In this document: positions 2,504-32,000 of the stretch, piece after piece
Layout: each line of letters starts with the position of its first letter
How positions within the stretch are numbered: position 1 is the first letter of the stretch
Translations under genes and position numbers: made by a program
DNA from: Candidatus Saccharimonadota bacterium
GTDB taxonomy: Archaea > Micrarchaeota > Micrarchaeia > Micrarchaeales > Micrarchaeaceae
Length of the DNA stretch: 32,000 nt
NCBI RefSeq assembly: GCF_002214165.1
Contig: NZ_CP019964.1
Span: forward strand, 810,001-842,000
Direction: 5' to 3'
The notes under the pieces: generated by a model
Told to the model about the DNA's origin: nothing
Seen by the model: only the letters and a program-made list of their open reading frames with translations
Databases searched by the model: none

Positions 2504-4366
2504 ATGAGGGATTTTGGAATTTATTGGAAAAACAAGAGAGAGGAAGTGGAAAGAGTTGAGCTTCCATTCCAGAAAATTGAGACGATAAACCTTCCAAGAT
2601 CAAATATTGGAACGCTCGCTCAATTTAAGAAAGATTCTGAGAATGGCGAATGGAAGAATAAACTGATCTGGGGAGACAACAAATACGTTATGGCATCTTT
2701 GCTGTCCGAGTTTCGTGGAAAAATAAAGTTAATTTACGCAGATCCGCCATTTTTCACGGGCACAAACATGAATATAACTTTGGAAGTTGGAGATGAAGGT
2801 GCAGTAAAGGAACCTTCCGCCATAGAGGAGATAGCCTATAGAAACATGTGGAAAGAAGGCCCTAGCTCTTTCTTTCAGTATATGTATGATAGATTCGTCC
2901 TGATGAAAGATTTGCTGGCTGAGGATGGTGCAATCTGGGTAAGATTTGACTATCATTATTCACACTATATAAAGACAATTTTGGACGAGATATTTGGTTA
3001 CGACAATTTTAGAAATGAAATAATAATAAATAGAACGAGGAAAAATGTTATGGCCAGTAGAACTCAAACAGTTTTTCCTACAGCCACGGATTCATTATTT
3101 TTATACGCGAAATCCGAAAACATGCTCCTAACTGAAACAAAAATCAAAACCGAGGAGGAACGAAAAGGCTATTGGAGGCATATGGATGACTCAGCGGGAC
3201 AGGGGTCAGCTAAAACATTCTTTGGTAAGTCTATGGAGCCTCCACCGGGAAAACATTGGAAATTCTCACAAGAAAATATAGATAAGATGATTGAAGAAGG
3301 CAGACTTAGACTAAATCCTAAGACTAGCCGACCAGAATACTGGGTAGAGCCGTCAGACGAATACCTTTTGGATACGAATTGGACGGATATTCCTGGATAT
3401 TCTTTTAGCACTGGCTATCCTACTGAAAATGCTGAACAGTTACTTGAAAGAGTAATCTTATCATCTTCTGTTAGAGAAGATTTGGTTGCTGATTTCTTCT
3501 CCGGCTCCGGGACCACTGCTGCAGTGGCAGAGAAATTGGGCAGAAAATGGATTGCGGCTGATATTGGAAGATTTTCTGTTCACACAATAAGAAAGAGGTC
3601 ACTTGATATTCCTCATTGTAAACCTTTTGAGGTCCTAAACCTTGGAAAATATGAAAGAAAGCACTGGATGGATCAGAACCTCGGCTCTGTTTATAGAAAT
3701 TACATTGATTTTATTTTACAACTTTACAAAGCCAAGCCTGTCTACGACTACAAGTGCATACACGGAATTATATCCGGAAAGGCGGTTCACGTTGGCCCAA
3801 TAGATTACCCTGTTACAAAAAGTGAGGTTGAGGAATGCCTGAAAGAAGCAAAAGACAACGGCTTCGATTCTCTGGATGTCTTGGGATGGGACTTTGAGAT
3901 GGAATTCAACGATAGGATATTAAGGGAGCTCAGGGGATCTTACGATTTTGGAATCTCTCTCAGGATCATACCAAACGAGGTAATGGATAAGAGAGCAGTA
4001 GAAGCTGGAGATGTTGATTTCTATGAGCATGCCTTCCTTGAAGCTAAACTCGCAACTTCAGGAAGGAAGGTAAAGGTTAACCTTGAAAATTTCATCATAC
4101 CGAACCCAGAATCCATACCGGAAGAACTCAGAGATAAGATACTCAAGTGGAGTGATTTTATAGACTATTGGAGCGTGGACTGGAATTACAGGGACGATAC
4201 TTTTCACAACGAGTGGCAGGAATTCAGGACAAAGAAAAAGAAGAGTTTGCAGTTGCAATCAATAGAGCATCATTATGACGCACCCGGGACGTACAAGGTA
4301 ATGGTAAAGGTCATAGATGTGTTCGGAAACGATACTACAACAATGAAAGAGGTAACTGTAGCATGA
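2504..4366 (+). CDS. mod: type III restriction-modification methyltransferase (Mod), beta-class amino-MTase, probably N6-adenine, with a C-terminal PKD-like domain
   Basis: Motif IV IYADPPFF lies upstream of motif I DFFSGSGTTAAVAEKLGRKWIAADI (beta-class order). The stop overlaps the res start (ATGA at 4363-4366). The C-terminus HHYDAPGTYKVMVKVIDVFGNDTTTMKEVTV matches the PKD consensus. Confidence 0.85.
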   Translation: MRDFGIYWKNKREEVERVELPFQKIETINLPRSNIGTLAQFKKDSENGEWKNKLIWGDNKYVMASLLSEFRGKIKLIYADPPFFTGTNMNITLEVGDEGAVKEPSAIEEIAYRNMWKEGPSSFFQYMYDRFVLMKDLLAEDGAIWVRFDYHYSHYIKTILDEIFGYDNFRNEIIINRTRKNVMASRTQTVFPTATDSLFLYAKSENMLLTETKIKTEEERKGYWRHMDDSAGQGSAKTFFGKSMEPPPGKHWKFSQENIDKMIEEGRLRLNPKTSRPEYWVEPSDEYLLDTNWTDIPGYSFSTGYPTENAEQLLERVILSSSVREDLVADFFSGSGTTAAVAEKLGRKWIAADIGRFSVHTIRKRSLDIPHCKPFEVLNLGKYERKHWMDQNLGSVYRNYIDFILQLYKAKPVYDYKCIHGIISGKAVHVGPIDYPVTKSEVEECLKEAKDNGFDSLDVLGWDFEMEFNDRILRELRGSYDFGISLRIIPNEVMDKRAVEAGDVDFYEHAFLEAKLATSGRKVKVNLENFIIPNPESIPEELRDKILKWSDFIDYWSVDWNYRDDTFHNEWQEFRTKKKKSLQLQSIEHHYDAPGTYKVMVKVIDVFGNDTTTMKEVTVA

Positions 4367-6900
4367 ACCCATTCGAAGAGCCAGAAACAAGGGTACAGAC
4401 AACCGCTCCTCTTGTGGAAGCTTTACGAAGCGAGGTTAGAAACTGGAGGAACTCTGGCTATTATGGCACTTCTAAAACTACCAGGCGATTGTTGCAATTC
4501 TGGTTCGACGATGAGCACAAGATAATTGATGAGAAATTCAGGTATTATTTTGCCCAGAAAGAGGCAATAGAAACCCTTATTTACATATATGAAGTGAAAA
4601 AGTTCAGGAAAATGAGCGACCTGATCCTGAATTATGACAGCACCAAGAAAATAGCATACAATCCAAACGAATATTTGTTTCCCAAATACTGCTTTAAAAT
4701 GGCTACAGGTTCCGGGAAAACCTATGTTATGGCACTGGCGATTGTCTGGTCATATTTCAACAACATAATGGAAGATAATGAAGAAATGCCGAGGAATTTT
4801 CTTATAATCGCGCCTAACATAGCAGTTTATGAGAGGCTGAAAGAGGATTTTTCGGATTCTAAGATATTCAATTCTGGAGTAATGATTCCAGACGAATTTC
4901 AACATCTTTGGGAATTCGAATCTGTAACTGAAGATTACATTCCCACCAGAAGCACAAAAGGCAGACTTTACCTGACCAATGTTCAAAGAATCTATGAAAG
5001 AGACAATGCGCCTGTTAATCCCATACAAGAGATCGTAGGCAAGAAACCATCGGACACCATAAGATATTATGACCAAATCATGGGGGAGATCAATGCCCTA
5101 ACCAGCCTGGGCATAATTAATGACGAGGCACACCACGTATGGGACAAGGATATTATCTGGAACCAATTTATCTTGACTTGCAACGATCTGCTTAAGAAGA
5201 AAGGGAAAGAATTGTCATTTCAGCTAGACTTCACAGCAACCCCAAAAAGGCAGGATTCTGGAAGTATTTTTGAATGGGTGATTACCGATTTTCCTCTGGC
5301 AGATGCCATAAGATGTGGAATCGTGAAGTCACCGATTATAGGTGAGGTCGAAAATCCTCATGAAACCCCATCGGACAGAGCTGATGTCATTTATAGGGAT
5401 TATATTGAAGCGGGATGCAGAAGATGGTCTTATTACAACGGTGTCATGGATAAGGTCAAGAAGCATCCGATAATATTTTTCATGGCAACTAAGACTTCCG
5501 AAGCAGAAGACATCAATAACTATCTGCAAACCAAGAACGAATTTAAGGGGAAAACACTGATTATTCACACCAATCTCAAAGGCGAAATTAGCGACAAAGA
5601 ATGGCAAAAGCTTAAGCAGGAGACAAGGGAGATAGATACATCGCACAAGTACAGGGCTATCGTGAGTGTCCTGATGCTGAGAGAAGGATGGGATGTCAAG
5701 AATGTTTGTGTCATAGTCGGTCTAAGGCCATTTACTTCTAAAGCAGAAATTCTGCCGGAACAAGCGCTTGGACGTGGGCTTAGATTGATGTTCGGCCCGG
5801 AATCAGGATACGAAGAGACGGTTGACGTTTTCGGTACAAAGGCCTTTGTTGACTATATAGACGAGGAGATGAGAAAGCAGGGAGTCGACATAAAAAGATA
5901 CAAAGAGAGAAATTTACCTACAGTTACAAACATATTCCCGGATACTCTAAGGAAATCTGAATTTAACTTTCGGATTCCAGTCCTATCTCCAAAATATAAA
6001 AGAGAGAACAGATCATTCAACGAAATTGACATTTCCACGCTTCCACAGGGAAAGTTTGACCTGGATTTAGAAACGTATACTAATATTAAGTCTGCGGTAG
6101 GAAGAGATGCGTTAACAGAGAAAGAGAGATGGCGTGATAGATGGGAACAGCCAATACCGGAAAACTATCCATCGGTCATCTCTTATTTGGCAAATATTAT
6201 TCTAAGGGCTTGCAAAATCCCATCTCGAAATAGTGAGCTTGTAGGAAAGCTAGACTCGTATGTTACTAACAGCATCTTTACAGCGGCTTTGACACAAGAT
6301 GTGAAAGATGATTATAGGTTCCTTCAAGCTATAAGTGAACCAAAAATCGTTGATTTCCTTACAGAGCTCTTCGTGAAGGTGATAAATAAGTTGACAATCC
6401 TTTCCACCGAAGTGCGACTTCAGTCAGAATCAAGAGAGGTAAAGGACATCAGACCCTCCTTGACCAGGAAGAAAACCTACACGCCGAAGAAATGCATTCT
6501 TAATCTTGTACCGGTAGCGAATGATTTTGAGTATGACTTTTGTAAGTTTCTTGATAATGATGCTTCAGATGTCAAAAAATACATAAAGAATGATAACAAC
6601 CTGAATTTCTACCTGGAGTATGTGAACGACAAAAAAGGTTTATCTTATTACCTGCCAGATTTTGTTGTTGTTTGCGATTCAGAAAACTACATCATAGAAA
6701 CCAAAGGAGAAGAGTCTGTGGAAGTGAAAAACAAGGATAAGAGGGCAAGAGAGTGGTGTGAGGATTCGACTAAACTGACTGGCAGTAAATGGACGTACCT
6801 CAAGGTTCCAGAGACTGTATTCAAGAACAATCGTGAAGTCAAGACCGTCAAAAAATTAGAAGAGATCGTCAGATCGTACGAGAGCGTTGAGAAAATTTAA
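4363..6900 (+). CDS. res: type III restriction enzyme Res subunit (SF2 DEAH helicase plus C-terminal PD-(D/E)xK nuclease)
   Basis: Motif I MATGSGKTYVM, motif II INDEAHHV, motif III TATP, then REGWDVKNV and motif VI QALGRGLR. The C-terminal LPDFVVV...IIETKGEE is a nuclease-type motif. Translationally coupled to mod. Confidence 0.85.
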   Translation: MNPFEEPETRVQTTAPLVEALRSEVRNWRNSGYYGTSKTTRRLLQFWFDDEHKIIDEKFRYYFAQKEAIETLIYIYEVKKFRKMSDLILNYDSTKKIAYNPNEYLFPKYCFKMATGSGKTYVMALAIVWSYFNNIMEDNEEMPRNFLIIAPNIAVYERLKEDFSDSKIFNSGVMIPDEFQHLWEFESVTEDYIPTRSTKGRLYLTNVQRIYERDNAPVNPIQEIVGKKPSDTIRYYDQIMGEINALTSLGIINDEAHHVWDKDIIWNQFILTCNDLLKKKGKELSFQLDFTATPKRQDSGSIFEWVITDFPLADAIRCGIVKSPIIGEVENPHETPSDRADVIYRDYIEAGCRRWSYYNGVMDKVKKHPIIFFMATKTSEAEDINNYLQTKNEFKGKTLIIHTNLKGEISDKEWQKLKQETREIDTSHKYRAIVSVLMLREGWDVKNVCVIVGLRPFTSKAEILPEQALGRGLRLMFGPESGYEETVDVFGTKAFVDYIDEEMRKQGVDIKRYKERNLPTVTNIFPDTLRKSEFNFRIPVLSPKYKRENRSFNEIDISTLPQGKFDLDLETYTNIKSAVGRDALTEKERWRDRWEQPIPENYPSVISYLANIILRACKIPSRNSELVGKLDSYVTNSIFTAALTQDVKDDYRFLQAISEPKIVDFLTELFVKVINKLTILSTEVRLQSESREVKDIRPSLTRKKTYTPKKCILNLVPVANDFEYDFCKFLDNDASDVKKYIKNDNNLNFYLEYVNDKKGLSYYLPDFVVVCDSENYIIETKGEESVEVKNKDKRAREWCEDSTKLTGSKWTYLKVPETVFKNNREVKTVKKLEEIVRSYESVEKI

Positions 6901-6949
6901 GAAGAGTGCTTCGAATGACAGTAATTTTAGGGAGAAATGGTTGGTTTTC

Positions 6950-7210
6950 ATGAGCTACACCGTAGAATCAACGGAAGCATTCGAGAAGGAATTCTCTAGG
7001 AACCATAAGGATAAGAAAGAATGGCTGCAACACATGGCAGAGAGACTGGAACAGGAACCTCAGTCTGGTAAGCCATTGAGAGGCAAGCTTCACGGTCTAT
7101 GGCAACTCAGAATTGGCCCTTTTAGGGTCTGGTATGAAATAAACGAAGAGCAAAAGAAAGTGACGCTCAGAGCAATCCTTCACAAAGACGAAGCCAAGAA
7201 GTATTATTAG
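6950..7210 (+). CDS. RelE/ParE-family type II toxin
   Basis: GKPLRGKLHGLWQLRIGPFRVWYEINEEQKKVTLRAILHKDEA follows the RelE/ParE pattern (g.pL.g.l.g.w..R.G.yR..Y.i......v.i..i.h...). ATG at 6950 is chosen over the track start 6887, which overlaps the res 3' end. Confidence 0.7.
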   Translation: MSYTVESTEAFEKEFSRNHKDKKEWLQHMAERLEQEPQSGKPLRGKLHGLWQLRIGPFRVWYEINEEQKKVTLRAILHKDEAKKYY

Positions 7211-7383
7211 AGTTCTTTCAGGAACTCTCTGACATTCCTGACCCTACCTTTCTGTATATCCTGTTCGCTCCTTTCCAGTTGATCCATGACATATTCATTT
7301 TCCAGAGTTTCGACTGTAGCCTCCAGACTATCAAGGTCGGATTTAGGTATGCTTACAAGCCTTGACTGTTTTGCTGTGGTCAT
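7207..7383 (-). CDS. 58-aa antitoxin-like protein (Phd/YefM- or RelB-like C-terminal pattern); not in the ORF track because it is under 60 aa
   Basis: My own translation of the minus strand gives MTTAKQSRLVSIPKSDLDSLEATVETLENEYVMDQLERSEQDIQKGRVRNVREFLKEL*. The LE.T.E.L.......L.RSE.DI..GR......FL.EL pattern is typical of archaeal antitoxins. It converges on the RelE-like gene and shares 4 nt with it (7207-7210). Confidence 0.45.
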   Translation of the reverse strand: MTTAKQSRLVSIPKSDLDSLEATVETLENEYVMDQLERSEQDIQKGRVRNVREFLKEL

Positions 7384-7424
7384 AATACAACTCTATATTC
7401 TTTCAGATTTTAATACCTTTTGGT

Positions 7425-7915
7425 ATGCTTCGGCTCAAATTCACCCCGACTTTCAGCCACCCCTCTTTGAGCCTTCGCCAATTACTATGTGCCCTTCGCT
7501 CGCCTGCACGCCGAGCACAGGATACCATGCTTCGCCTCCAATCAAAATTCACCCCTAACCCCTCTTTTGATTTACGTCTCGCACTCTTCTCCGAAGAGCC
7601 CCTCATTCGCCTTGCTCATTCAGGGTGGTGTCCTGTGCTCGCCGCTCGTGGTGTATGGGTAGTGTTTCACACCTTCGCTACGCTTGGTGTTCACACCACC
7701 CACCGCTAACGCTTACACCACTTGGTCTTGCTACGCAAGACTTCCGGCTCGCTTCGGGCACATTATTCTCTCCTGCGGAGTGCAATTTAAGGGGGGATAA
7801 GGGGAAAGGGGTTCCTCATGCCGTGCTGAACCTCAATTGTTCAAGAGACAATGGTTGCACAGCACTGCAACCATACCTTTTGGAAAAGGCGGGCAAAAAT
7901 CCCGCGCTTTCATTA
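7425..7915 (+). ncRNA. GC-rich, hairpin-dense noncoding element, copy A (candidate structured RNA or iteron/MITE-like DNA element)
   Basis: Sampled 60-nt lines are about 57% G+C, against about 42% in a sampled neighbouring coding line (hand count). Several overlapping 'open' frames give S/R/P/L/C-rich translations. Many perfect hairpins and a 15-bp long-range pairing (7512-7526 with 7627-7641). Homologous to 22703-23270 in the same orientation. Confidence 0.35.
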
Positions 7916-9478: not shown

Positions 9479-9560
9479 GTATTCCCTTAAAACTTTAATC
9501 AAATCCCGACCGGTCCATTTGTCAAACTATATCTCAATAACTTGAATACCAAACTTTTTG
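9479..9560 (+). repeat. direct repeat copy 1 (att-like); partner at 20907-20975
   Basis: 9479-9520 gtattcccttaaaactttaatcaaatcccgaccggtccattt is 40/42 identical to 20907-20948. Gapped similarity continues (aaactat...gaatacc...tttt). Confidence 0.65.
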
Positions 9561-11200: not shown

Positions 11201-11335
11201 AAGTATTATACTTTAGTCACAACGAATATTTATACATATCTCGGCGTGATTTACTGAGCTAAACATCCAAGACATATACCATTATAATATTAAGCAGATC
11301 TCGACCTTTCCTTCAAGTTTTAATTCCTTGAATTT

Positions 11336-20906: not shown

Positions 20907-20975
20907 GTATTCCCTTAAGACATTAATCAAATCCCGACCGGTCCATTTAAACTATTAATCGAATACCTTTTATGC
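20907..20975 (+). repeat. direct repeat copy 2 (att-like), overlapping the integrase promoter region
   Basis: See 9479-9560. Ends about 20 nt before the integrase ATG at 20995 and contains the TATA-like ccttttatgc. Confidence 0.65.
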
Positions 20976-20994: not shown

Positions 20995-22284
20995 ATGACC
21001 ATGCAGCCGAAGTATCAGCAACTGCTTCTTGACGATGACGTGCGTAGATGGTTTGAGAACCTCAGGGCAAAGTCAGTATTGACGGCAACGGTAGCCCTGA
21101 GGAATCTGGGGCATTATTGCGAGCTTACAGAAACAACCCCGAAGGAAATCCTGATTAGAGCCAGGACAAATGAAAAGGATTTCCGCTACGAGTTTACGGA
21201 TTTTGTCAGGAAGATGGAGAAAGAAGGCAAGGCAGGATCGTACATTGCAAGGTTCAAGAAGGTCATTCTCTCATGGCTGAAGTTTAACGATATCCGTTTG
21301 CAGTTAACCGTTAACATATCCGGCGAGAATGAAACTCCTACGATAGCGAACGAACGGGTTCCCAGCAAGGAAGAGCTTGCAAGAGTCCTCAGAAAGGCCA
21401 CCTCAAGAGGCAGGGTGGCCATAGCGATCATGGCATTCTCAGGCCTCAGGCCAGAGTCTCTGGGAGACTATGAGGGCTCAGACGGTCTCAGGCTTGGCGA
21501 CTTCAAGGAACTGAAACTGTCCAATGAAATCCAGTTCGATAATATTCCCGCTATGGTAATGGTGAAGAGCAGGCTCAGTAAGACACGGCACCAGTATTTC
21601 AGTTTTATTGGCGAAGAGGGAGTGACCTACATCAGGGAATATCTTGAGGAGAGGAGGAAGCAGGGAGAGGAGTTAACGTATGAATCGCCACTGTTGCAGT
21701 TTGATTCCAGAGGCACGAAAAAGAACGCATTTTTGAGAACAACACTGGTAACGAGGGACATAAGGGAAGCCATAGAACAGGCCGGGTTGAAGATGCGCCC
21801 CTATGTTCTGAGGGCATACTTCTCAACAGCACTGGATATAGCGGAGTCCAAGGGGCTCATATCACATCCCTGGAGGCAGTTCATTATGGGCCACAAAGGT
21901 GATATTGAAGCCAGATATTCCACAAACAAGCGATTGCCACCAGATATTATCGATGAGATGAGGGAATCTTACAGAAAATGCCTTAAATTTCTTGAAACGA
22001 GAATATCCGAGGTATCGGAGGACAACGCCAAGCTATTCTTACAGCAACAGCTATTATCAGCAGTGGGCTACAAACAGGAAGAGATAGACAAGATAGACCT
22101 TGCAAGCGTGAGCAACGAGGACTTTCAGCAATTATTACGGGACAAGGTAGCAGGAGCGATGAGCGACAACGGAGCAAAGCAGAAGGTCATACCTGTAAGC
22201 GATATAGAGCAGTATATCAGCGATGGATACGACTTTGAGGCAGTTCTTCCGAACGGAAAAGCGGTAATGAGGGTAAGGTTTTAA
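20995..22284 (+). CDS. int: tyrosine recombinase / integrase with a tail of about 110 aa after the catalytic Tyr
   Basis: Catalytic pattern: AFSGLRPESL (Arg I), LSKTRHQYFSF (Lys hairpin region), YVLRAYFST (x-x-x-R), FIMGHKGDIEARYS (His, Tyr). Confidence 0.8.
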   Translation: MTMQPKYQQLLLDDDVRRWFENLRAKSVLTATVALRNLGHYCELTETTPKEILIRARTNEKDFRYEFTDFVRKMEKEGKAGSYIARFKKVILSWLKFNDIRLQLTVNISGENETPTIANERVPSKEELARVLRKATSRGRVAIAIMAFSGLRPESLGDYEGSDGLRLGDFKELKLSNEIQFDNIPAMVMVKSRLSKTRHQYFSFIGEEGVTYIREYLEERRKQGEELTYESPLLQFDSRGTKKNAFLRTTLVTRDIREAIEQAGLKMRPYVLRAYFSTALDIAESKGLISHPWRQFIMGHKGDIEARYSTNKRLPPDIIDEMRESYRKCLKFLETRISEVSEDNAKLFLQQQLLSAVGYKQEEIDKIDLASVSNEDFQQLLRDKVAGAMSDNGAKQKVIPVSDIEQYISDGYDFEAVLPNGKAVMRVRF

Positions 22285-22702
22285 GTTCATTTACCCCCCT
22301 TTGAATATTGGCGTAAAGTATCAAGTTATACAAAAACATCAGATACGCTTTTTGAAATGATGTAGTATAATAATACTTTTTTCAGCCACACTGACTTTTT
22401 CATATTATTACTACCGACCCGATGAAAACGAAAACAACAATTAGTATTACTTATGCTATACTAATTGTTCAGGAACAAGAGAGGAGAGAGCGTATTAATT
22501 CACTGGCTTTTCTGTATTACATACAGCTACATCCTAATACGTTGTTAGGATTTTAAGGTAATGAACGGCGGAACAGGGACACCCACTATACACGAGTAAG
22601 ATTATTCCGCCTACACCGGTATCATTTGGATAGGGCATATCTAACATTCTATTAGTTTTCTTTACTACATCTTATCTGTTTTCTTATTATTTGAATCAAT
22701 CA

Positions 22703-23270
22703 AGCCCCTATCCATGCGTAAGCCACCCTAACCTGCAGTCTGTAAGACTGCTCCATTACGGGATAGACCCTTCATTCCGCAGCAGACTTGGCTTACCTTA
22801 GATTGCTTAACCCCCGCCTCGCTACGCACCCACGCAGTTCGTGTTACACACTCAGCGTGTGCGAAGCACAGGACACTCTACGACACGCCGACCTCCTGAA
22901 CGGAGGATTGGCTTTCGCTACGGCAAAAATTCACCCCTCCTTTGTCGCTTCGCTCCAAATTCCCCCCCTCTTTTTGCCTTCGCTCGTTTCGGAGGTCTAA
23001 TCAGGTATAGGCACGTGTCCGCCTTCGGCGTTCACTTATTGCTTCACAACAGCCTATTATCCTGATTTGTCCAGCCCTTCGGTCTGTCCACCGACCCCCC
23101 GTGTCCTGTGCTTCGCACCCCCACGTGTTTCACACGTGTGGGCTACGTGTCCCTTCGGGACACTTCGGGTCTTCACTACGTTCAGACCTGCTACGCTCGG
23201 CGGGGAGGGGGTTCGCAGGAAAGCCCTTAAAATTTCAATTGGTAATAATACGGGCTTTCCTTTGCGATAA
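22703..23270 (+). ncRNA. GC-rich, hairpin-dense noncoding element, copy B (homologous to 7425-7915)
   Basis: 18/18 long-range pairing of 22859-22876 with 23101-23118. Hairpins at 22735-22751, 23122-23138, 23147-23163 and 23218-23226/23252-23260. Repeated box caaa(a)attcacccc at 22924 and 22955. Overlapping S/R/P/L/C-rich ORFs in several frames. Confidence 0.35.
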
Positions 23271-23382
23271 CCTTTCTTTTAGACAGAACAAGATAGCAAA
23301 GAAAGCTTAACCAAAGAAGGTAATTCGATTAATTGGCAGAAAAGGAATGATGTGGTAAATTGCGCAAAACTGAATCCCAGAT

Positions 23383-24018
23383 GTGGTAGGTTCGGAACAC
23401 GCTTGGGCTGTGAGAGCAGAATCAACAGAATGGATGGAAGAGGAAGCCGGAGGGAGAGGGAAGGATATAGACTACAGGGCAGAGGTTCTTCGCATTCTCA
23501 ATGAGAGGATGTCCTATGCAACTGAAATGGGAAAGGAGATATCCGCGAAGTATGGAATAGAAAAGGATCTTGCCAAGCTCAGGATAAAGTCCATCCTTGA
23601 AGAGATGAAGAACAACAACGAGGTTGGAAGGGTCAAGTATCTCAGGGATGGAAAGCCCATAGTGATGTACTATTCCAGGAGCCCAAATCTCTCTAACCTG
23701 CACACAGGAATGCAGTCCCAGGCAGTAGACATCCTCACGGAGCTTGGCGTAGCCGTAAACAGGATATCGACCACAGGCGAAAGAGGAGCCTTTGATATAG
23801 AGACGGATTTCTTCATGGTGGAGATAGAGACAGGCCTGAAACACAACATGGAAGACCTGAAGGACAGGATAAAGAGCACTAACCTGAGAATGATCATTAT
23901 AGTACCGAACAGAGAGCTAATGGAGAAATATACTGGATTAGGAGAGAACGTGGTTGTTGCTACCATTGACTCCTTCAAGGTCCTTCTTGAGGAGCCTCAG
24001 ATGAATAGAGGCTCATAA
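23383..24018 (+). CDS. hypothetical protein: N-terminal winged-HTH-like region plus a C-terminal PD-(D/E)xK-like motif (start uncertain: 23383 GTG, 23434 ATG)
   Basis: RILNERMSYATEMGKEISAKYGI looks HTH-like. GAFDIETDFFMVEIETGLK has the D...E.E..K spacing of restriction-endonuclease-fold proteins. Motif-level inference only. Confidence 0.45.
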   Translation: MVGSEHAWAVRAESTEWMEEEAGGRGKDIDYRAEVLRILNERMSYATEMGKEISAKYGIEKDLAKLRIKSILEEMKNNNEVGRVKYLRDGKPIVMYYSRSPNLSNLHTGMQSQAVDILTELGVAVNRISTTGERGAFDIETDFFMVEIETGLKHNMEDLKDRIKSTNLRMIIIVPNRELMEKYTGLGENVVVATIDSFKVLLEEPQMNRGS

Positions 24019-25315: not shown

Positions 25316-25587
25316 TGGCAGATATTAAGAAGAGGGGATTGGACAGTCTAATATCAGGGAACTCGCACTCTGGCCCACAAACAAGTGAGTCGTCAGAGAA
25401 ATACACTAAGACAGTAGGATTCAAGGTAACGGAGAAGCAGTATGAAACCTACAGGAGATACTCAAAGTATTTTGGAATTGATGATCTCATAAAGAAGTGG
25501 CGCGCGGACCTTGACAAAATAGAGCAGGAGAAGGGCAGAGATATGGAAAACGTGGAAACTGAAATCAGGAAACGGTTAAACAAGTAA
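25315..25587 (+). CDS. small partition adaptor / centromere-binding-like protein (ParB-type N-terminal peptide plus a possible RHH)
   Basis: TAATG overlap with parA. N-terminal KKRGLDSLISG resembles the ParB N-terminal RGLG.GLdaLi ParA-interaction motif. TVGFKVTEKQYETYRRY resembles an RHH beta-strand and helix. Confidence 0.5.
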   Translation: MADIKKRGLDSLISGNSHSGPQTSESSEKYTKTVGFKVTEKQYETYRRYSKYFGIDDLIKKWRADLDKIEQEKGRDMENVETEIRKRLNK

Positions 25588-25602
25588 CGGTTAACCGGTA
25601 AC
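25584..25602. promoter_or_regulatory. GTTAACC-type motif containing a 10-bp palindrome, just after the parA-adaptor operon
   Basis: gtaacggttaaccggtaac contains the perfect palindrome cggttaaccg (25588-25597). Another aacggttaaa lies at 25571-25580. Confidence 0.35.
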
Positions 25603-26898: not shown

Positions 26899-26960
26899 AA
26901 ACAATTGCGGAAAAGATTTCACCGACATAGAAAAGGAAATCAAAAAACAGCTAGACAAAT

Positions 26961-26972
26961 AACCGTTAACCG
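26961..26972. promoter_or_regulatory. GTTAACC-type motif downstream of the DUF2130 gene
   Basis: aaccgttaaccg, the same motif as at 24491-24530 and 25584-25602. Confidence 0.3.
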
Positions 26973-27028
26973 ATAATGTTTGAATATATAATCTGGGATT
27001 GCGTACGGAGAACTAAAGGTGCAACAAG

Positions 27029-29386: not shown

Positions 29387-30265
29387 TTGCCCATAAAAGA
29401 TCCCTATGCATTCCTTGAGAGCAAGGTAAGGCAGAGAGCAAAAGAGACAAGCAACATAAAGAATGCTCTCTTATTTGATATGGACTACAAACCTGATAAG
29501 ATACTGATCAGAAGCGAATTGGATAAAGTGACTAACGATTTAGCTGACTATGTGAACCTCAGTTTACCGAGGCATATAATCATTTACGGTTCGAAAGGCT
29601 CAGGGAAGACACTGAGCGCACTGACAATGGCAAAGGCACTGAAGGACAGCAAATCAATTCCATACTATTATGTCAATGCGAGAGAGAACCCGACATCAAT
29701 AAAGATATACAGAACGATGACAAGAATATCAAGCAGAGGACATGATATCGATGAAGTGAAAAAAAGATTCGATTCACTACTATCTGGAAAATCCCTCGTT
29801 ATTCTTGACGAAGTTGATTTCCTGCAGGATTACGATATTCTTTATCATATAACCAGACACACCAAGGCAAACCTCATTCTTCTAACACAGAAGGTCTACT
29901 GGTACAAGGATATGAACGACGAAAGCGTGAAGAGTTCGCTTCAGCCTGATCATATAGTATTCCACGAATACACCGCAAATGAGATGAGGGAGATACTGGA
30001 GATGAGGGCTGAGGAAGGCCTTTATAATTACAGCAAGGAGGCTATAGGTTTACTATCTGCTATGCTAGTAAGGGATTACAGGAGCGACGCAAGGATCGGC
30101 ATCAAGGCACTCGAAATCCTAGGCAGGAACAATAAATGGAGCGATGAAGATGTCAGGAACGCCTTAAGGCAGGCCTACATAGAAGTTGAAGGCGAAACCC
30201 TTAGAAACCTTGGAGACAGGGATCTGTTGATACTCGCATCGCTGATAAGTTTCCATAGTTTATAA
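29387..30265 (+). pseudogene. Orc1/Cdc6 replication initiator, 3'-truncated (lacks the winged-helix DNA-binding domain)
   Basis: Walker A IIYGSKGSGKTLSAL, Walker B LVILDEVDFL. Collinear with the 3' half of ORF 1085-2482 up to LILASLI, then ends after 5 more residues. The paralogous copy continues for about 75 aa. TTG start 5 nt after aaggtga. Confidence 0.7.
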
Positions 30266-30404: not shown

Positions 30405-30519
30405 CAGCTTACTGTGGCATTTTCATATATTTATGCTTATTTAAAAAGATAGAGCTAACGCTAGAGAGTATCATTAAATAGAAAGAGTGGCGTATGCACC
30501 GAGTAGAAGATTATAATTA

Positions 30520-32000
30520 ATTAGGCTTTAGTAATGGAATGTTCATAGGTCGCCGAAGCTCCCTACTTACGCACCCATCCTATCAAAGTCGTCTATTGCG
30601 ACCGCCCTAGTGCCTCGTTTCGGGTCTGACTTCGTCCTTAGATGCTTTCAGGACTTATTCATCTGGCGCGTAGCTACCCGGCAATGCAATCACAACCGGT
30701 ACACCAGTGGCGCCGATCTTCCGTTCCTCTCGTACTAGGAAGATCTTACCCTCCGGCACTGACACCATCAGTAGATCTTACCGTACTGTCTCGCGACGTA
30801 CTAAACGCAGCTCATGTGAGTTTTTGATGGGCGTACAGCCCAACCCTTGGCAGCTTGTGTACCACCAGGATAACTCAAGCCCATATCGAGGTATCAAACA
30901 GCCGGGTCGATGTGAACTCTCACCGGCTACAAATCAGTTACCTCTAGAGTAACTTGTCTGACAGCTTGGAGCCCCATTAAAAGAGCTACCAAAGTTCGTT
31001 AAGCCCCTGTTTCCAGTCTGCATACCACGCTTTTCAGTATACAGTCAGCCCTGCATTTGCCTTTGAGCTTACCGATGAGTTTCCAACTCATCTAAGCAGA
31101 GCATTGGCCACTTTCGTTTCCTTATCGAAAGCGACCGTCCAGTCTAACTATCCACCTGCAGATGTCCTATTTCTAGTTAGCTGTATGGCAAGTTATAAGT
31201 GGTGTTACATTGGTGCTCCATTTGGGCCAGAGCCCAAATATCGACGCTCCCACTTACGCTATGTATAACAAGACATGCAACAACTACAGGCTATAGTCAA
31301 GCTTCATAGAGACTTCATTTCCCACTGATGGATCGCGGCATGTTCACCGCGTAGTGAGTTCATTGGATCCCAGGTTGGGACAGTGGAACAATCGTTACGC
31401 CATTCATGCAAGTCACCTATTAAGTGACGAGGTATTACGCTACCTTAAGAGAGTCAGAGTTACTCCCGCTCTTTACTAGCGCTTACTCCCGTTGAAACGG
31501 GTATTCACGTACTAGTGGTGAGCAGGCGTCACCCACTGTACTTAGCCTTTCGGCTTTGCGGTGAGTTGTGTTTTAAATAAACAGTCGTTGTTCCCTTGTA
31601 AATGATATCTGCGCTTACTAGGCGCAGACATGGCTTATCGAAAACTTATGCCACTAACTTGCCGAATTCCCTAACCTGGGTTACATCCAACACGCCTTGG
31701 CTTTTTAAGCTAGCAACACTTGTACTAGTTCTAGGTACGAACTAACAGGGTCGTTGCAGATTTCCTTTTCACTGGATCAAGAACTCAGTCCAACGATTCA
31801 TTTAGCTGCTTCTCCTCATAACGAGACTCTGCAGCCCTTTGCATCTTCTTACGGACATATCCCCAACCGTCAGAAATCTGCCTTGTGTTGCCACACCTAC
31901 CTGTTAGGGGCTGGAATATTAACCAGCTTCCCTTTTGTCTCTCGGTTGTTGGCCTAAGACTTAGGATCGCCTAACTCTCCGCTGACGAGCGTTGCGAAGA
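30520..32000 (-). rRNA. rrl: 23S rRNA gene, 3' portion (continues beyond the window end); the 3' end at about 30520 is approximate
   Basis: Contains reverse complements of universal 23S motifs: cttagatgctttcag (30637-30651) and the sarcin-ricin loop gttcctctcgtact (30723-30736, AGUACGAGAGGAAC). No long ORFs with ordinary composition. No 5S gene between the 3' end and the next protein gene. Confidence 0.92.

Follow-up and report, generated by a model that had tools for sequence, protein, structure and literature searches.

Two noncoding elements in a 32,000-nucleotide (nt) stretch of contig NZ_CP019964.1 (assembly GCF_002214165.1, forward-strand positions 810,001 to 842,000; hereafter the window) are members of a strongly conserved, structure-constrained module family of acidophilic-archaea plasmids that had not been described previously. 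Modules of this family are self-contained, helix dense, and 350 to 560 nt long. The two window copies, A (conserved unit at 7432-7889) and B (conserved unit at 22809-23318), are members of A-type and B-type subfamilies of one superfamily, which are bridged by an element on plasmid pPO1 of Picrophilus oshimae. Sequence comparison leads us to favor a role for the element as a structured RNA of the plasmid backbone, a tentative preference that we would place somewhat under an even chance. Noncoding structured elements of large size are rare, and hardly any are known on archaeal plasmids; the range of this one covers at least five genera, cultured Picrophilus and Cuniculiplasma among them.

Copies A and B represent two subfamilies of noncoding, structured elements

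Both copies are GC rich (53.2% G+C for A and 54.6% for B, compared to 42.6% for the window), and annotators called no gene across the element. Several overlapping plus-strand frames are open, which speaks for a protein-coding sequence or a decayed gene. However, three frames are open at once owing only to base composition, variable sites among homologs are distributed over the three positions modulo 3 with no 3-nt periodicity (11/11/9 and 24/28/26), and the indels in A-type homologs (1, 16, 24, and ~50 nt) are of arbitrary length and not multiples of three. We give a coding origin practically no credence, in agreement with a first-pass annotation of this DNA that took the region to be GC rich and noncoding.

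The minimum free energy (MFE) of folding was far lower for each copy than for dinucleotide shuffles on both strands (z scores of -6.5 and -5.2 for A and of -9.65 and -9.07 for B), which, together with membership in a plasmid-backbone family, bears out the initial proposal of a structured element on mobile DNA. That proposal recognized no known RNA family, and our Rfam search of the elements likewise returned nothing at gathering score or at an E value of <0.05; the best matches (E = 0.078 for A and E = 2.3 for B) were far under the gathering threshold. The sole match of Rfam 15 in the whole window was to archaeal large-subunit (LSU) rRNA, and nothing except one tRNA was found in the related loci L180, L186-L188, L190, L195, L201, and L203.

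In profile searches across the subfamilies, the other window copy was matched only at a hairpin with a C-rich loop (E = 3e-5 and 0.008). A B-type profile built without window copy B matched copy B at an E value of 6.6e-139, and bases 3715-4125 of pPO1 were matched by the profiles of both subfamilies, at E values of 1.6e-70 (B-type) and 2.4e-10 (A-type). Since matches between A and B are limited to the C-rich-loop hairpin and pPO1 is matched by both profiles, we refer to A and B as subfamilies rather than as copies alignable end to end. Their initial description as two diverged copies is correct in that they are related and share one block order, but they cannot be aligned over their full lengths and belong to separate subfamilies. 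The block order, which is present in A, B, pPO1, and every full-length homolog, begins with one or two module hairpins, a 5' arm, a module, a 3' arm, and a GTGT-TTC-ACAC hairpin, and continues with further hairpins, the G-run GGGGAGGGG, GGGGTTC, a terminal hairpin with TTTCAWT in its AT-rich loop, and a T-rich tail hairpin. The extents first suggested for the elements (7425-7915 and 22703-23270) are replaced by the conserved units given above.

Compensatory changes preserve the long-range helix and other pairings

The long-range helix between the two arms is preserved by compensatory change. Its variants are GAGCACAGGAC in A, GAAGCACAGGAC in B, with a compensated 1-bp insertion, and GAGCAGACGAC in pPO1, with two flipped pairs, and the 3' arm is altered to match in each of the three. 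The helix comprises 15 bp in copy A (7512-7526 with 7627-7641, including one T:G) and 18 of 18 possible pairs in copy B (22859-22876 with 23101-23118). We scored a consensus structure on an alignment of the B-type copies and pPO1. In this alignment, 97.1% of cells paired, and 17 pair changes on both sides were observed, spread across eight helices, compared to 3.5 ± 1.5 in shuffles (0 of 500 as high) and 2 to 5 with slid partners. The compensated indel between A and B, the two flipped pairs in pPO1, and these 17 both-side changes all uphold the first-pass claim that the helix is kept by compensatory change.

The local pairings described at the outset were reproduced at every coordinate, including the hairpins at 7584-7598, 7662-7672, 7725-7741, 7836-7852, 7853-7872, 7876-7889, 7889-7905, and 23122-23138, an alternative 9-bp pairing of 7623-7631 with 7693-7701, the GTGT-TTC-ACAC hairpin common to both copies, and a box repeated within them. 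On a larger scale, whole helix-closed domains are gained or lost, with loops and junctions being kept while stems vary. Loci L221-L224 are without a complete arm-to-arm domain, and in pPO1 the large B-type domain is swapped for a different hairpin and two hairpins after the 3' arm are missing.

The repeated box is a module hairpin found also in tailed viruses

The repeated box is itself a hairpin, consisting of an A/T-ended stem around TTCACCCC(C), an optional insert, and CCCC(C)TC. In a scripted count of stems, 29 of the 33 distinct module instances had at least five contiguous closing pairs, representing ~10 unrelated stems in which 2 of 140 pairs were G·U. Module loops measured 17 to 40 nt. 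Conservation of the loop combined with covariation of the stems indicates that the module hairpin forms in single-stranded nucleic acid.

The motif is common to the plasmid element and to archaeal-type tailed viruses. One or two modules occur in intergenic regions of the low-GC tailed-virus contigs L186-L189 and L208-L210, which encode terminase, portal, and capsid proteins; the L208 terminase is nearest to a haloarchaeal tailed-virus terminase. The viral module region folds significantly, with z scores of -5.0 on the plus strand and -3.9 on the minus strand. In L208 (5810-6603) and L187 (4421-5173), the intergenic region preceding the terminase gene, ~0.8 kb long, contains one or two module hairpins, GCTTCGC motifs, and additional same-strand C-runs, and L186 (1-700) contains one module with C-runs nearby, 108 nt from the contig end. 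These intergenic regions may correspond, in viruses, to the element of the plasmids. L208 also carries TTCCAGTGGAA, which resembles an origin recognition box (ORB), at 6500; an ORB or origin function suggested by it was rejected, as TTCCAGTGGAA is absent from the elements and from the other viral loci. The 14- to 15-nt patterns that we searched for in the viral contigs gave chance matches only, and a reading of GGGGAGGG as akin to FtsK-orienting polar sequences (KOPS) was dropped as resemblance only, with which the module loops are inconsistent.

The element belongs to the backbone of Thermoplasmatales plasmids

A scan of species-representative genomes with the pattern common to A and B yielded seven true homologs, all A-type and all in metagenome-assembled genomes of Thermoplasmatales (two of I-plasma, one of E-plasma, and four others). 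A complete A-type copy is present in Cuniculiplasma divulgatum CP133595, and Thermoplasma acidophilum retains a ~60-nt remnant only, beside the same small open reading frame (ORF) as in the window. Scanning acidic metagenomes with the G-run block detected ~13 B-type copies, full or truncated, and a BLAST search against plasmids led to pPO1, whose element is an intermediate form of ~400 nt. The boundaries of the element are sharp, and its flanks differ among copies, with left and right flanks shuffled independently.

Genes of the backbone encode Orc1/Cdc6, a serine resolvase, ParA, an N6/N4 methylase with a ResIII helicase, and an FtsK/HerA/TraB-like ATPase. Synteny of this backbone was observed among the window, pPO1, and the A-type loci L177-L183, with the element following restriction and toxin genes; in pPO1 it is flanked by the restriction-modification genes on one side and by the ATPase gene on the other. 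Position and orientation of the element in the backbone are constant from pPO1 to Cuniculiplasma. These findings identify the family as a backbone component, in acidophilic Thermoplasmatales, of Orc1/Cdc6-type plasmids and of integrated plasmids, with the IG2 region of pPO1 as its prototype. A role as centromere for ParA was rejected, since an Acidiplasma locus (L214) and L227 carry the same operon with no element upstream.

Judged by sequence, IG2 of pPO1 is a true homolog of the window elements. IG2 was reported to have a deviant G+C content on a plasmid of 30.5% G+C, to receive no Tn5 insertions, and possibly to form "stable secondary DNA structures," and no family, structure, conservation, or function was recognized in it; the AT-rich repeat region of the plasmid, IG1, lies on the other side (Angelov et al. 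2011, PMC3177234). The published transcription start sites (TSSs) of the flanking pPO1 ORFs, determined by rapid amplification of cDNA ends (RACE), map to ~3493 (minus strand) and ~4528 (plus strand), both heading away from the element (PMC3177234). Because these TSSs lie outside the element and diverge from it, the element is not a leader of the flanking ORFs, and a 5' leader or riboswitch was rejected on this ground and on the variation of neighboring genes on both sides among copies. pPO1 was one of only two plasmids characterized in Thermoplasmatales by 2011, the other being pTA1, and is a candidate cloning vector; our finding offers a concrete, testable role for its unexplained IG2.

The element is conserved above its flanking protein gene, the A-type core (327 to 351 nt) being 94 to 97% identical between copies and the adjoining gene for 58 amino acids (aa) 69 to 88% identical at the DNA level. 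This difference counts against a selfish or neutral cluster of GC-rich palindromes, similar to mitochondrial GC clusters or to miniature inverted-repeat transposable elements (MITEs), in which stems would be kept by template-switch correction of quasi-palindromes. Although such a cluster would fit the perfect stems, the coming and going of single hairpin units (a 24-nt unit, a 50-nt hairpin, and loop inserts), and the setting on mobile DNA, it does not fit the fixed backbone position and orientation from pPO1 to Cuniculiplasma or the conservation of unpaired sequence, and we consider it very improbable. Nor does a MITE, one of the options raised at the outset, agree with the data. The 15- to 18-bp repeats are internal, the ends of the units (GGCTCAAA.../...AAAGG in A and AACCCCCGCC.../...AAAGAA in B) are not inverted repeats, the flanks have no target-site duplication, no further dispersed copies were found in the window, and the copies keep one backbone position. 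The iteron alternative fared no better: we found neither an ORB array nor a tandem array of direct repeats beside an initiator gene, and the element is GC rich and lies 3 to 6 kb from orc1/cdc6-like genes.

The window matches the largest genomic island of "Candidatus Mancarchaeum acidiphilum" Mia14, and one window protein is 100% identical to a Mia14-named protein. This island is 36.5 kb long, lies beside the 23S rRNA gene, encodes a copper ATPase, an XerD-type integrase, ParA, and a Pin invertase, and was traced to Cuniculiplasma-like archaea (PMC5498576). The window is probably a Thermoplasmatales-derived island inside this Micrarchaeota genome rather than part of a Thermoplasmatales genome, and the element travels with an island that passed from Thermoplasmatales to a Micrarchaeota symbiont. 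We also observed the 3' half of an archaeal 23S rRNA gene at 30509-32000 (minus strand), ~240 nt from the end of an Orc1/Cdc6-like gene, which fits the published site of the Mia14 island. Copies A and B bracket the window cargo, which includes the OLD nuclease gene, the copper island, and the integrase. We read the window as two related backbones joined, with one element apiece; A and B probably entered with these two plasmid backbones, each of which brought its own element. A and B were also considered as att-type borders of one island, an idea that we rejected, as the copies are not hybrids and a plasmid backbone normally has one element.

One rearranged copy and the case for a recombination site

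In the B-type locus L203, the segment from the 5' arm to the module lies in inverted orientation; it is joined to the 18-bp arm at one breakpoint, and the second C-run of the module marks the other. This rearranged copy (7103-7398 of L203) is 1 of ~25 and is not a clean inversion; the other copies share one internal orientation. Upstream of it, to position 7700, L203 contains a stretch rich in purines and hairpins, together with the 3' end of a further element-like unit (GGGGTTTGGGTGGGGGGAAGC...GGGCTTCC).

The L203 breakpoints raise the possibility of a double-stranded DNA (dsDNA) recombination site or hotspot, at which the inverted repeats and C-run modules would be substrates of a serine recombinase (Pin/resolvase type) or an XerA-like integrase for inversion, resolution of multimers, or exchange of cargo where backbone and cargo meet. 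The independent shuffling of flanks on each side of B-type copies, the bracketing of the window cargo by A and B, and the resolvase/invertase encoded by every backbone are also in line with such a site, as is an analogy to the recombination motif TAAACTGGGGAGTTTA of Sulfolobus conjugative plasmids, which is similar in kind. However, all but this one of the ~25 copies are unrearranged, the arms are 100 to 224 bp apart and neither hix- nor res-like, and the recombinase genes are 3 to 5 kb away. Hix-like 26-bp sites with a 2-bp core and an adjacent invertase gene, as in the Hin/Gin/Pin switch, were not found. Furthermore, the module stems differ in sequence between copies, so that complementarity is conserved rather than a protein-binding sequence, and ~15 further covarying hairpins and the one-strand loop bias would be left unexplained. 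We regard a recombination site as improbable.

A structured RNA is favored over a site in single-stranded DNA

If the element is transcribed, nested long-range helices (closing, outer, and 15- to 18-bp) would organize a set of short hairpins, which would display conserved unpaired sequence in the form of one or two C-rich loops (UUCACCCC...CCCCUC in plus-strand reading) and the G-run GGGGAGGGG. The C-rich loops may pair with G-rich partners. A candidate partner is the element's own G-run, pairing with which would close the fold; alternatively, the partner might act in trans and be a Shine-Dalgarno-like GGAGG/GGGGUGA sequence or a protein. UCACCCC and CCCCUC are similar to the end of 16S rRNA that carries the anti-Shine-Dalgarno sequence. 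An RNA of this kind could then serve plasmid maintenance or regulation.

The nested helices, domain modularity, conserved unpaired sequence, and GC richness in AT-rich replicons fit a structured RNA better than the alternatives, as do the presence of the module in dsDNA viruses and the negative test for single-stranded DNA in pPO1. Weak evidence in the same direction comes from TATA-like boxes located 25 to 30 nt upstream in several contexts (7408-7415, 22684-22692, and ~3691-3705 of pPO1) and from a T-rich tract after the terminal hairpin. Two further candidate signs were discarded. CTTCGG sequences, considered as cUUCGg tetraloops of a plus-strand RNA, were re-parsed as symmetric stems with TTC triloops, and the start of Logan contig L213, considered as a TSS, coincides with the first 31-mer unique to that copy and is an assembly branch point.

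Several observations weigh against an RNA. A single divergent sequence, pPO1, accounts for most of the double changes, and the structure under test was built from the very sequences on which it was scored. G·U pairs make up 2.4 to 7.9% of MFE pairs in the element on either strand, compared to 15% in three 23S rRNA chunks of the window and 10 to 16% in coding controls. The helices common to both strands contain 5 G:T and 7 A:C cells, with variable events being approximately equal; a plus-strand RNA had initially been argued from wobble pairing, an argument that falls because G:T and A:C departures are equally frequent and the T:G in the copy A helix is a private variant of the window copy. Local stems are perfect and triloops dominate, with 11 of 24 triloops being TNC on the plus strand (equivalent to GNA on the minus strand) and 2 the opposite way, and each element has 10 to 18 CTWCG tips on the plus strand and 1 to 3 on the minus strand. 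The C(GNA)G tip is a classic stable DNA mini-hairpin. Strand signals also conflict: loop type and purine richness point to the minus strand, and the plus strand is indicated by the T-tract, by the orientation of the viral genes, and by G·U pairs that are fixed in helices 6 and 15. No promoter conserved across contexts was found at the sharp left boundary. Finally, L203 demonstrates that DNA recombination at element repeats occurs at least occasionally.

Many of these features are accommodated by a cis-acting DNA site on the single-stranded minus strand, where an array of d(C-GNA-G)-tipped hairpins and long-range foldbacks would be recognized during complementary-strand priming, transfer, or another single-stranded intermediate. 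Models for such a site are the single-strand initiation (ssi) signals of phages and plasmids, phiX174-type origins, and the telomere palindromes of Streptomyces. Stems in the element are strand symmetric and nearly all Watson-Crick, with G·U depleted on both strands and G:T departures equaling A:C departures, and the bias of triloops and CTWCG tips corresponds to GNA-type loops on the minus strand. The mini-hairpins GCGAAGC and GCGTAGC recur in the element, and hairpins of this type are reportedly of exceptional stability as DNA (work of Hirao and of Yoshizawa). A sharply bounded unit with no conserved promoter would likewise be expected of a DNA site, the pPO1 element adjoins a gene with weak FtsK/HerA/TraB/CedD-like matches that is similar to the window gene at 1085-2482, and the island crossed between phyla (PMC5498576). 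Against this stands pPO1, the only studied member, in which no single-stranded plasmid DNA was found and theta replication is thought to start from the other intergenic region (PMC3177234). In addition, no relaxase, Rep (HUH), or primase gene was seen in the backbone, the module occurs in dsDNA tailed-virus contigs, and module loops of 17 to 40 nt together with helices spanning 100 to 400 nt demand long single-stranded stretches. We take a single-stranded DNA site seriously without thinking it probable; if correct, it would reveal an unrecognized step in the replication or transfer of these plasmids.

We retain a structured RNA as the preferred reading, which would make the family a new archaeal noncoding RNA class. 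A bolder form of this reading, which we think doubtful, is a class of large (350 to 560 nt) structured RNA specific to archaeal mobile elements that passed with Orc1/Cdc6 plasmids and integrated plasmids of Thermoplasmatales into a symbiont of the DPANN archaea, and whose C-rich-loop hairpin, shared with tailed viruses, would act in trans, e.g., by pairing with Shine-Dalgarno-like G-rich sequences or titrating a host factor. Of the first-pass interpretation as a whole, the structural constraint, the location on mobile DNA, and the helix compensation stand, and the strand argument and the MITE and iteron options do not.

Organization of copies A and B

Copy A is 94 to 97% identical to L176, L177, L179-L183, and L218, and its limits were set on the left from L181 and L221 and on the right from L182 and L181. 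All of its parts are given in plus-strand orientation. It opens with module hairpin H1 (7432-7473; stem GGCTCAAA/TTTGAGCC, loop TTCACCCC...CACCCCTC), the loop insert of which varies among homologs, followed by the 5' strand ATGTGCCC of a predicted outer long-range helix (7487-7494) whose 3' strand, GGGCACAT, lies at 7756-7763. This outer helix is invariant across A-type copies, is retained in the mini variant L221, and gives no covariation signal. Nested within it are the 5' arm of the long-range helix (7512-7526), an inverted repeat whose changes among A, B, and pPO1 are matched by those of the 3' arm, module hairpin H2 (7541-7571; stem ATCAAAA/TTTTGAT, loop TTCACCCCTAACCCCTC), the hairpin CTCTTC-TCC-GAAGAG (7584-7598), whose loop and one pair are variable in homologs, and the 3' arm (7627-7641). 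A predicted branched hairpin domain (7650-7719) contains GTGT-TTC-ACAC (7662-7672) and GGTGT-TC-ACACC (7686-7697), and a 24-nt unit of this domain is gained or lost among homologs.

Downstream of this domain are the hairpin GTCTTGC-TAC-GCAAGAC (7725-7741) and, past the outer helix, the hairpin CTCTCC-TGC-GGAGTG (7768-7782), which in L179 and L183 is CACCCT-TGC-AGGGGG, amounting to two compensated pairs. The G-run segment of copy A, GGGGGGATAAGGGGAAAGGGG (7791-7811), is degenerate, with other copies having GGGGAGGGG. A terminal hairpin with the AT-rich loop TCAATTG and the tail hairpin CCTTTTGGAAAAGG complete the unit (7817-7889), with a different stem in L181. Window copy A is without a ~50-nt hairpin found in other A-type copies.

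Copy B has its relatives in L192-L207 and pPO1, and its parts are likewise on the plus strand. The TATA-like TTATTATTT (22684-22692) precedes a GC-rich, hairpin-bearing 5' extension (22703-22808) that was seen only in window copy B and is absent from L193, L195, L201, and L204. The conserved unit starts with the 5' strand of a closing helix (helix 1), AACCCCCGCC at 22809-22818, the partner of which is the G-run GGCGGGGAGGGGGTT at 23199-23213, the best-conserved block in B-type copies and pPO1. Between these strands lie the 5' arm (22859-22876) and 3' arm (23101-23118) of the 18-bp helix (helix 2), which enclose the hairpin GCCGACCTCC-TGAAC-GGAGGATTGGC (helix 3; 22887-22912), with two pairs compensated in pPO1; the module hairpin (helix 5; 22922-22978), with the stem GGCAAAAA/TTTTTGCC and a loop composed of TTCACCCC, the half-box CAAATTCCCCCCC, and CCCCTC; and a large branched hairpin domain (helices 6 to 11; 22991-23072) that is the one replaced by another hairpin in pPO1. 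Three hairpins follow the 3' arm at 23120-23190 (helices 13 to 15): CCCACGTGT-TTC-ACACGTGTGGG, GTGTCCC-TTC-GGGACAC, and CGGGTC...GACCTG. The unit ends at 23214-23318 with a terminal hairpin (stem GGAAAGCCC/GGGCTTTCC, AT-rich loop) and the conserved tail CTTTGCGATAACCTTTCTT with its tail hairpin; in these two hairpins (helices 16 and 17), four and two pairs, respectively, are compensated.

Other features of the window and related loci

Direct repeats of 42 nt (GTATTCCCTTAAAACTTTAATCAAATCCCGACCGGTCCATTT) occur at 9479-9520 and 20907-20948 (95% identical), with a third at 11274-11315 (67%). The repeats bracket an 11.4-kb copper/metal-resistance segment, and the second lies 47 nt upstream of an XerA-like integrase gene (20995-22284). 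Those at 9479 and 20907 probably represent att-type sites of the copper island and are better att candidates than A and B. A motif resembling this repeat was found near the element remnant in Thermoplasma acidophilum (L215, ~4660-4690).

The 465-aa product encoded at 1085-2482 is apparently chimeric. Its N terminus is an FtsK/HerA/VirB4-like ATPase, as in pPO1 ORF1, and its C terminus is homologous to that of the Orc1/Cdc6-like 292-aa protein encoded at 29387-30265, with the repeat 2004-2248/29994-30238 being 74% identical. Related loci have one gene with the opposite halves of this ATPase and Orc1/Cdc6-like pair, and the chimera suggests recombination between two plasmid copies.

Upstream of copy A, a ParE-like toxin gene (6887-7210, plus strand) and the 58-aa ORF (7207-7383, minus strand) are arranged tail to tail with a 4-nt overlap and do not form an operon. 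Relatives of the 58-aa ORF, which are labeled Phd/YefM antitoxins by JGI, make up a family of 344 clusters; in the loci inspected the ORF is usually beside an A-type element, and the convergent layout is kept in Thermoplasma acidophilum.

Palindromes of the AACGGTTAAC type (GGAAACGGTTAACC) were observed at three backbone gene ends (399-433, 25552-25600, and 26941-26975), two of them around ParA-associated genes, and are possibly protein-binding sites, perhaps for partition. In L221, a 680-nt gap (2821-3500) upstream of a homolog of the window gene at 23383-24018 contains many GTACTG(G/A)(T/A)TG(T/G)-like direct repeats (tgtactgtactgattgtacc) and looks like an iteron array, unrelated to the element.

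Comparison with known systems

Arrays of d(GCGAAGC)-type, ssi, and Streptomyces telomere hairpins share with the element packed perfect palindromes, C(GNA)G tips on one strand, and a replicon setting. In contrast to these arrays, the replicons carrying the element are circular and Orc1/Cdc6 dependent, and its module loops and long-range helices are without counterpart. The Sulfolobus motif TAAACTGGGGAGTTTA resembles the module in being a short AT-rich stem around a G/C run that is found on archaeal plasmids and at rearrangement breakpoints, but it differs in sequence, size, and archaeal phylum, and here the motif is embedded in a structured unit of 0.4 to 0.5 kb.

Among RNAs, C-rich-loop RNAs of the RsaE/RoxS type and sponge RNAs of the CsrB/RsmZ type display repeated short motifs on hairpin loops; their likeness to the element is confined to these displayed loop motifs and does not extend to homology. 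The closest parallels to a structured RNA of this size are GOLLD, ROOL, and HEARO/omega RNA in Rfam, which likewise are several hundred nucleotides long, contain many helices, are borne by phages, plasmids, or transposons, and have functions that are unknown or recently found. Relative to these RNAs, the element has no Rfam match and no adjacent tRNA, IscB, or TnpB gene, and it is archaeal, unusually G·U poor, and rich in triloops.

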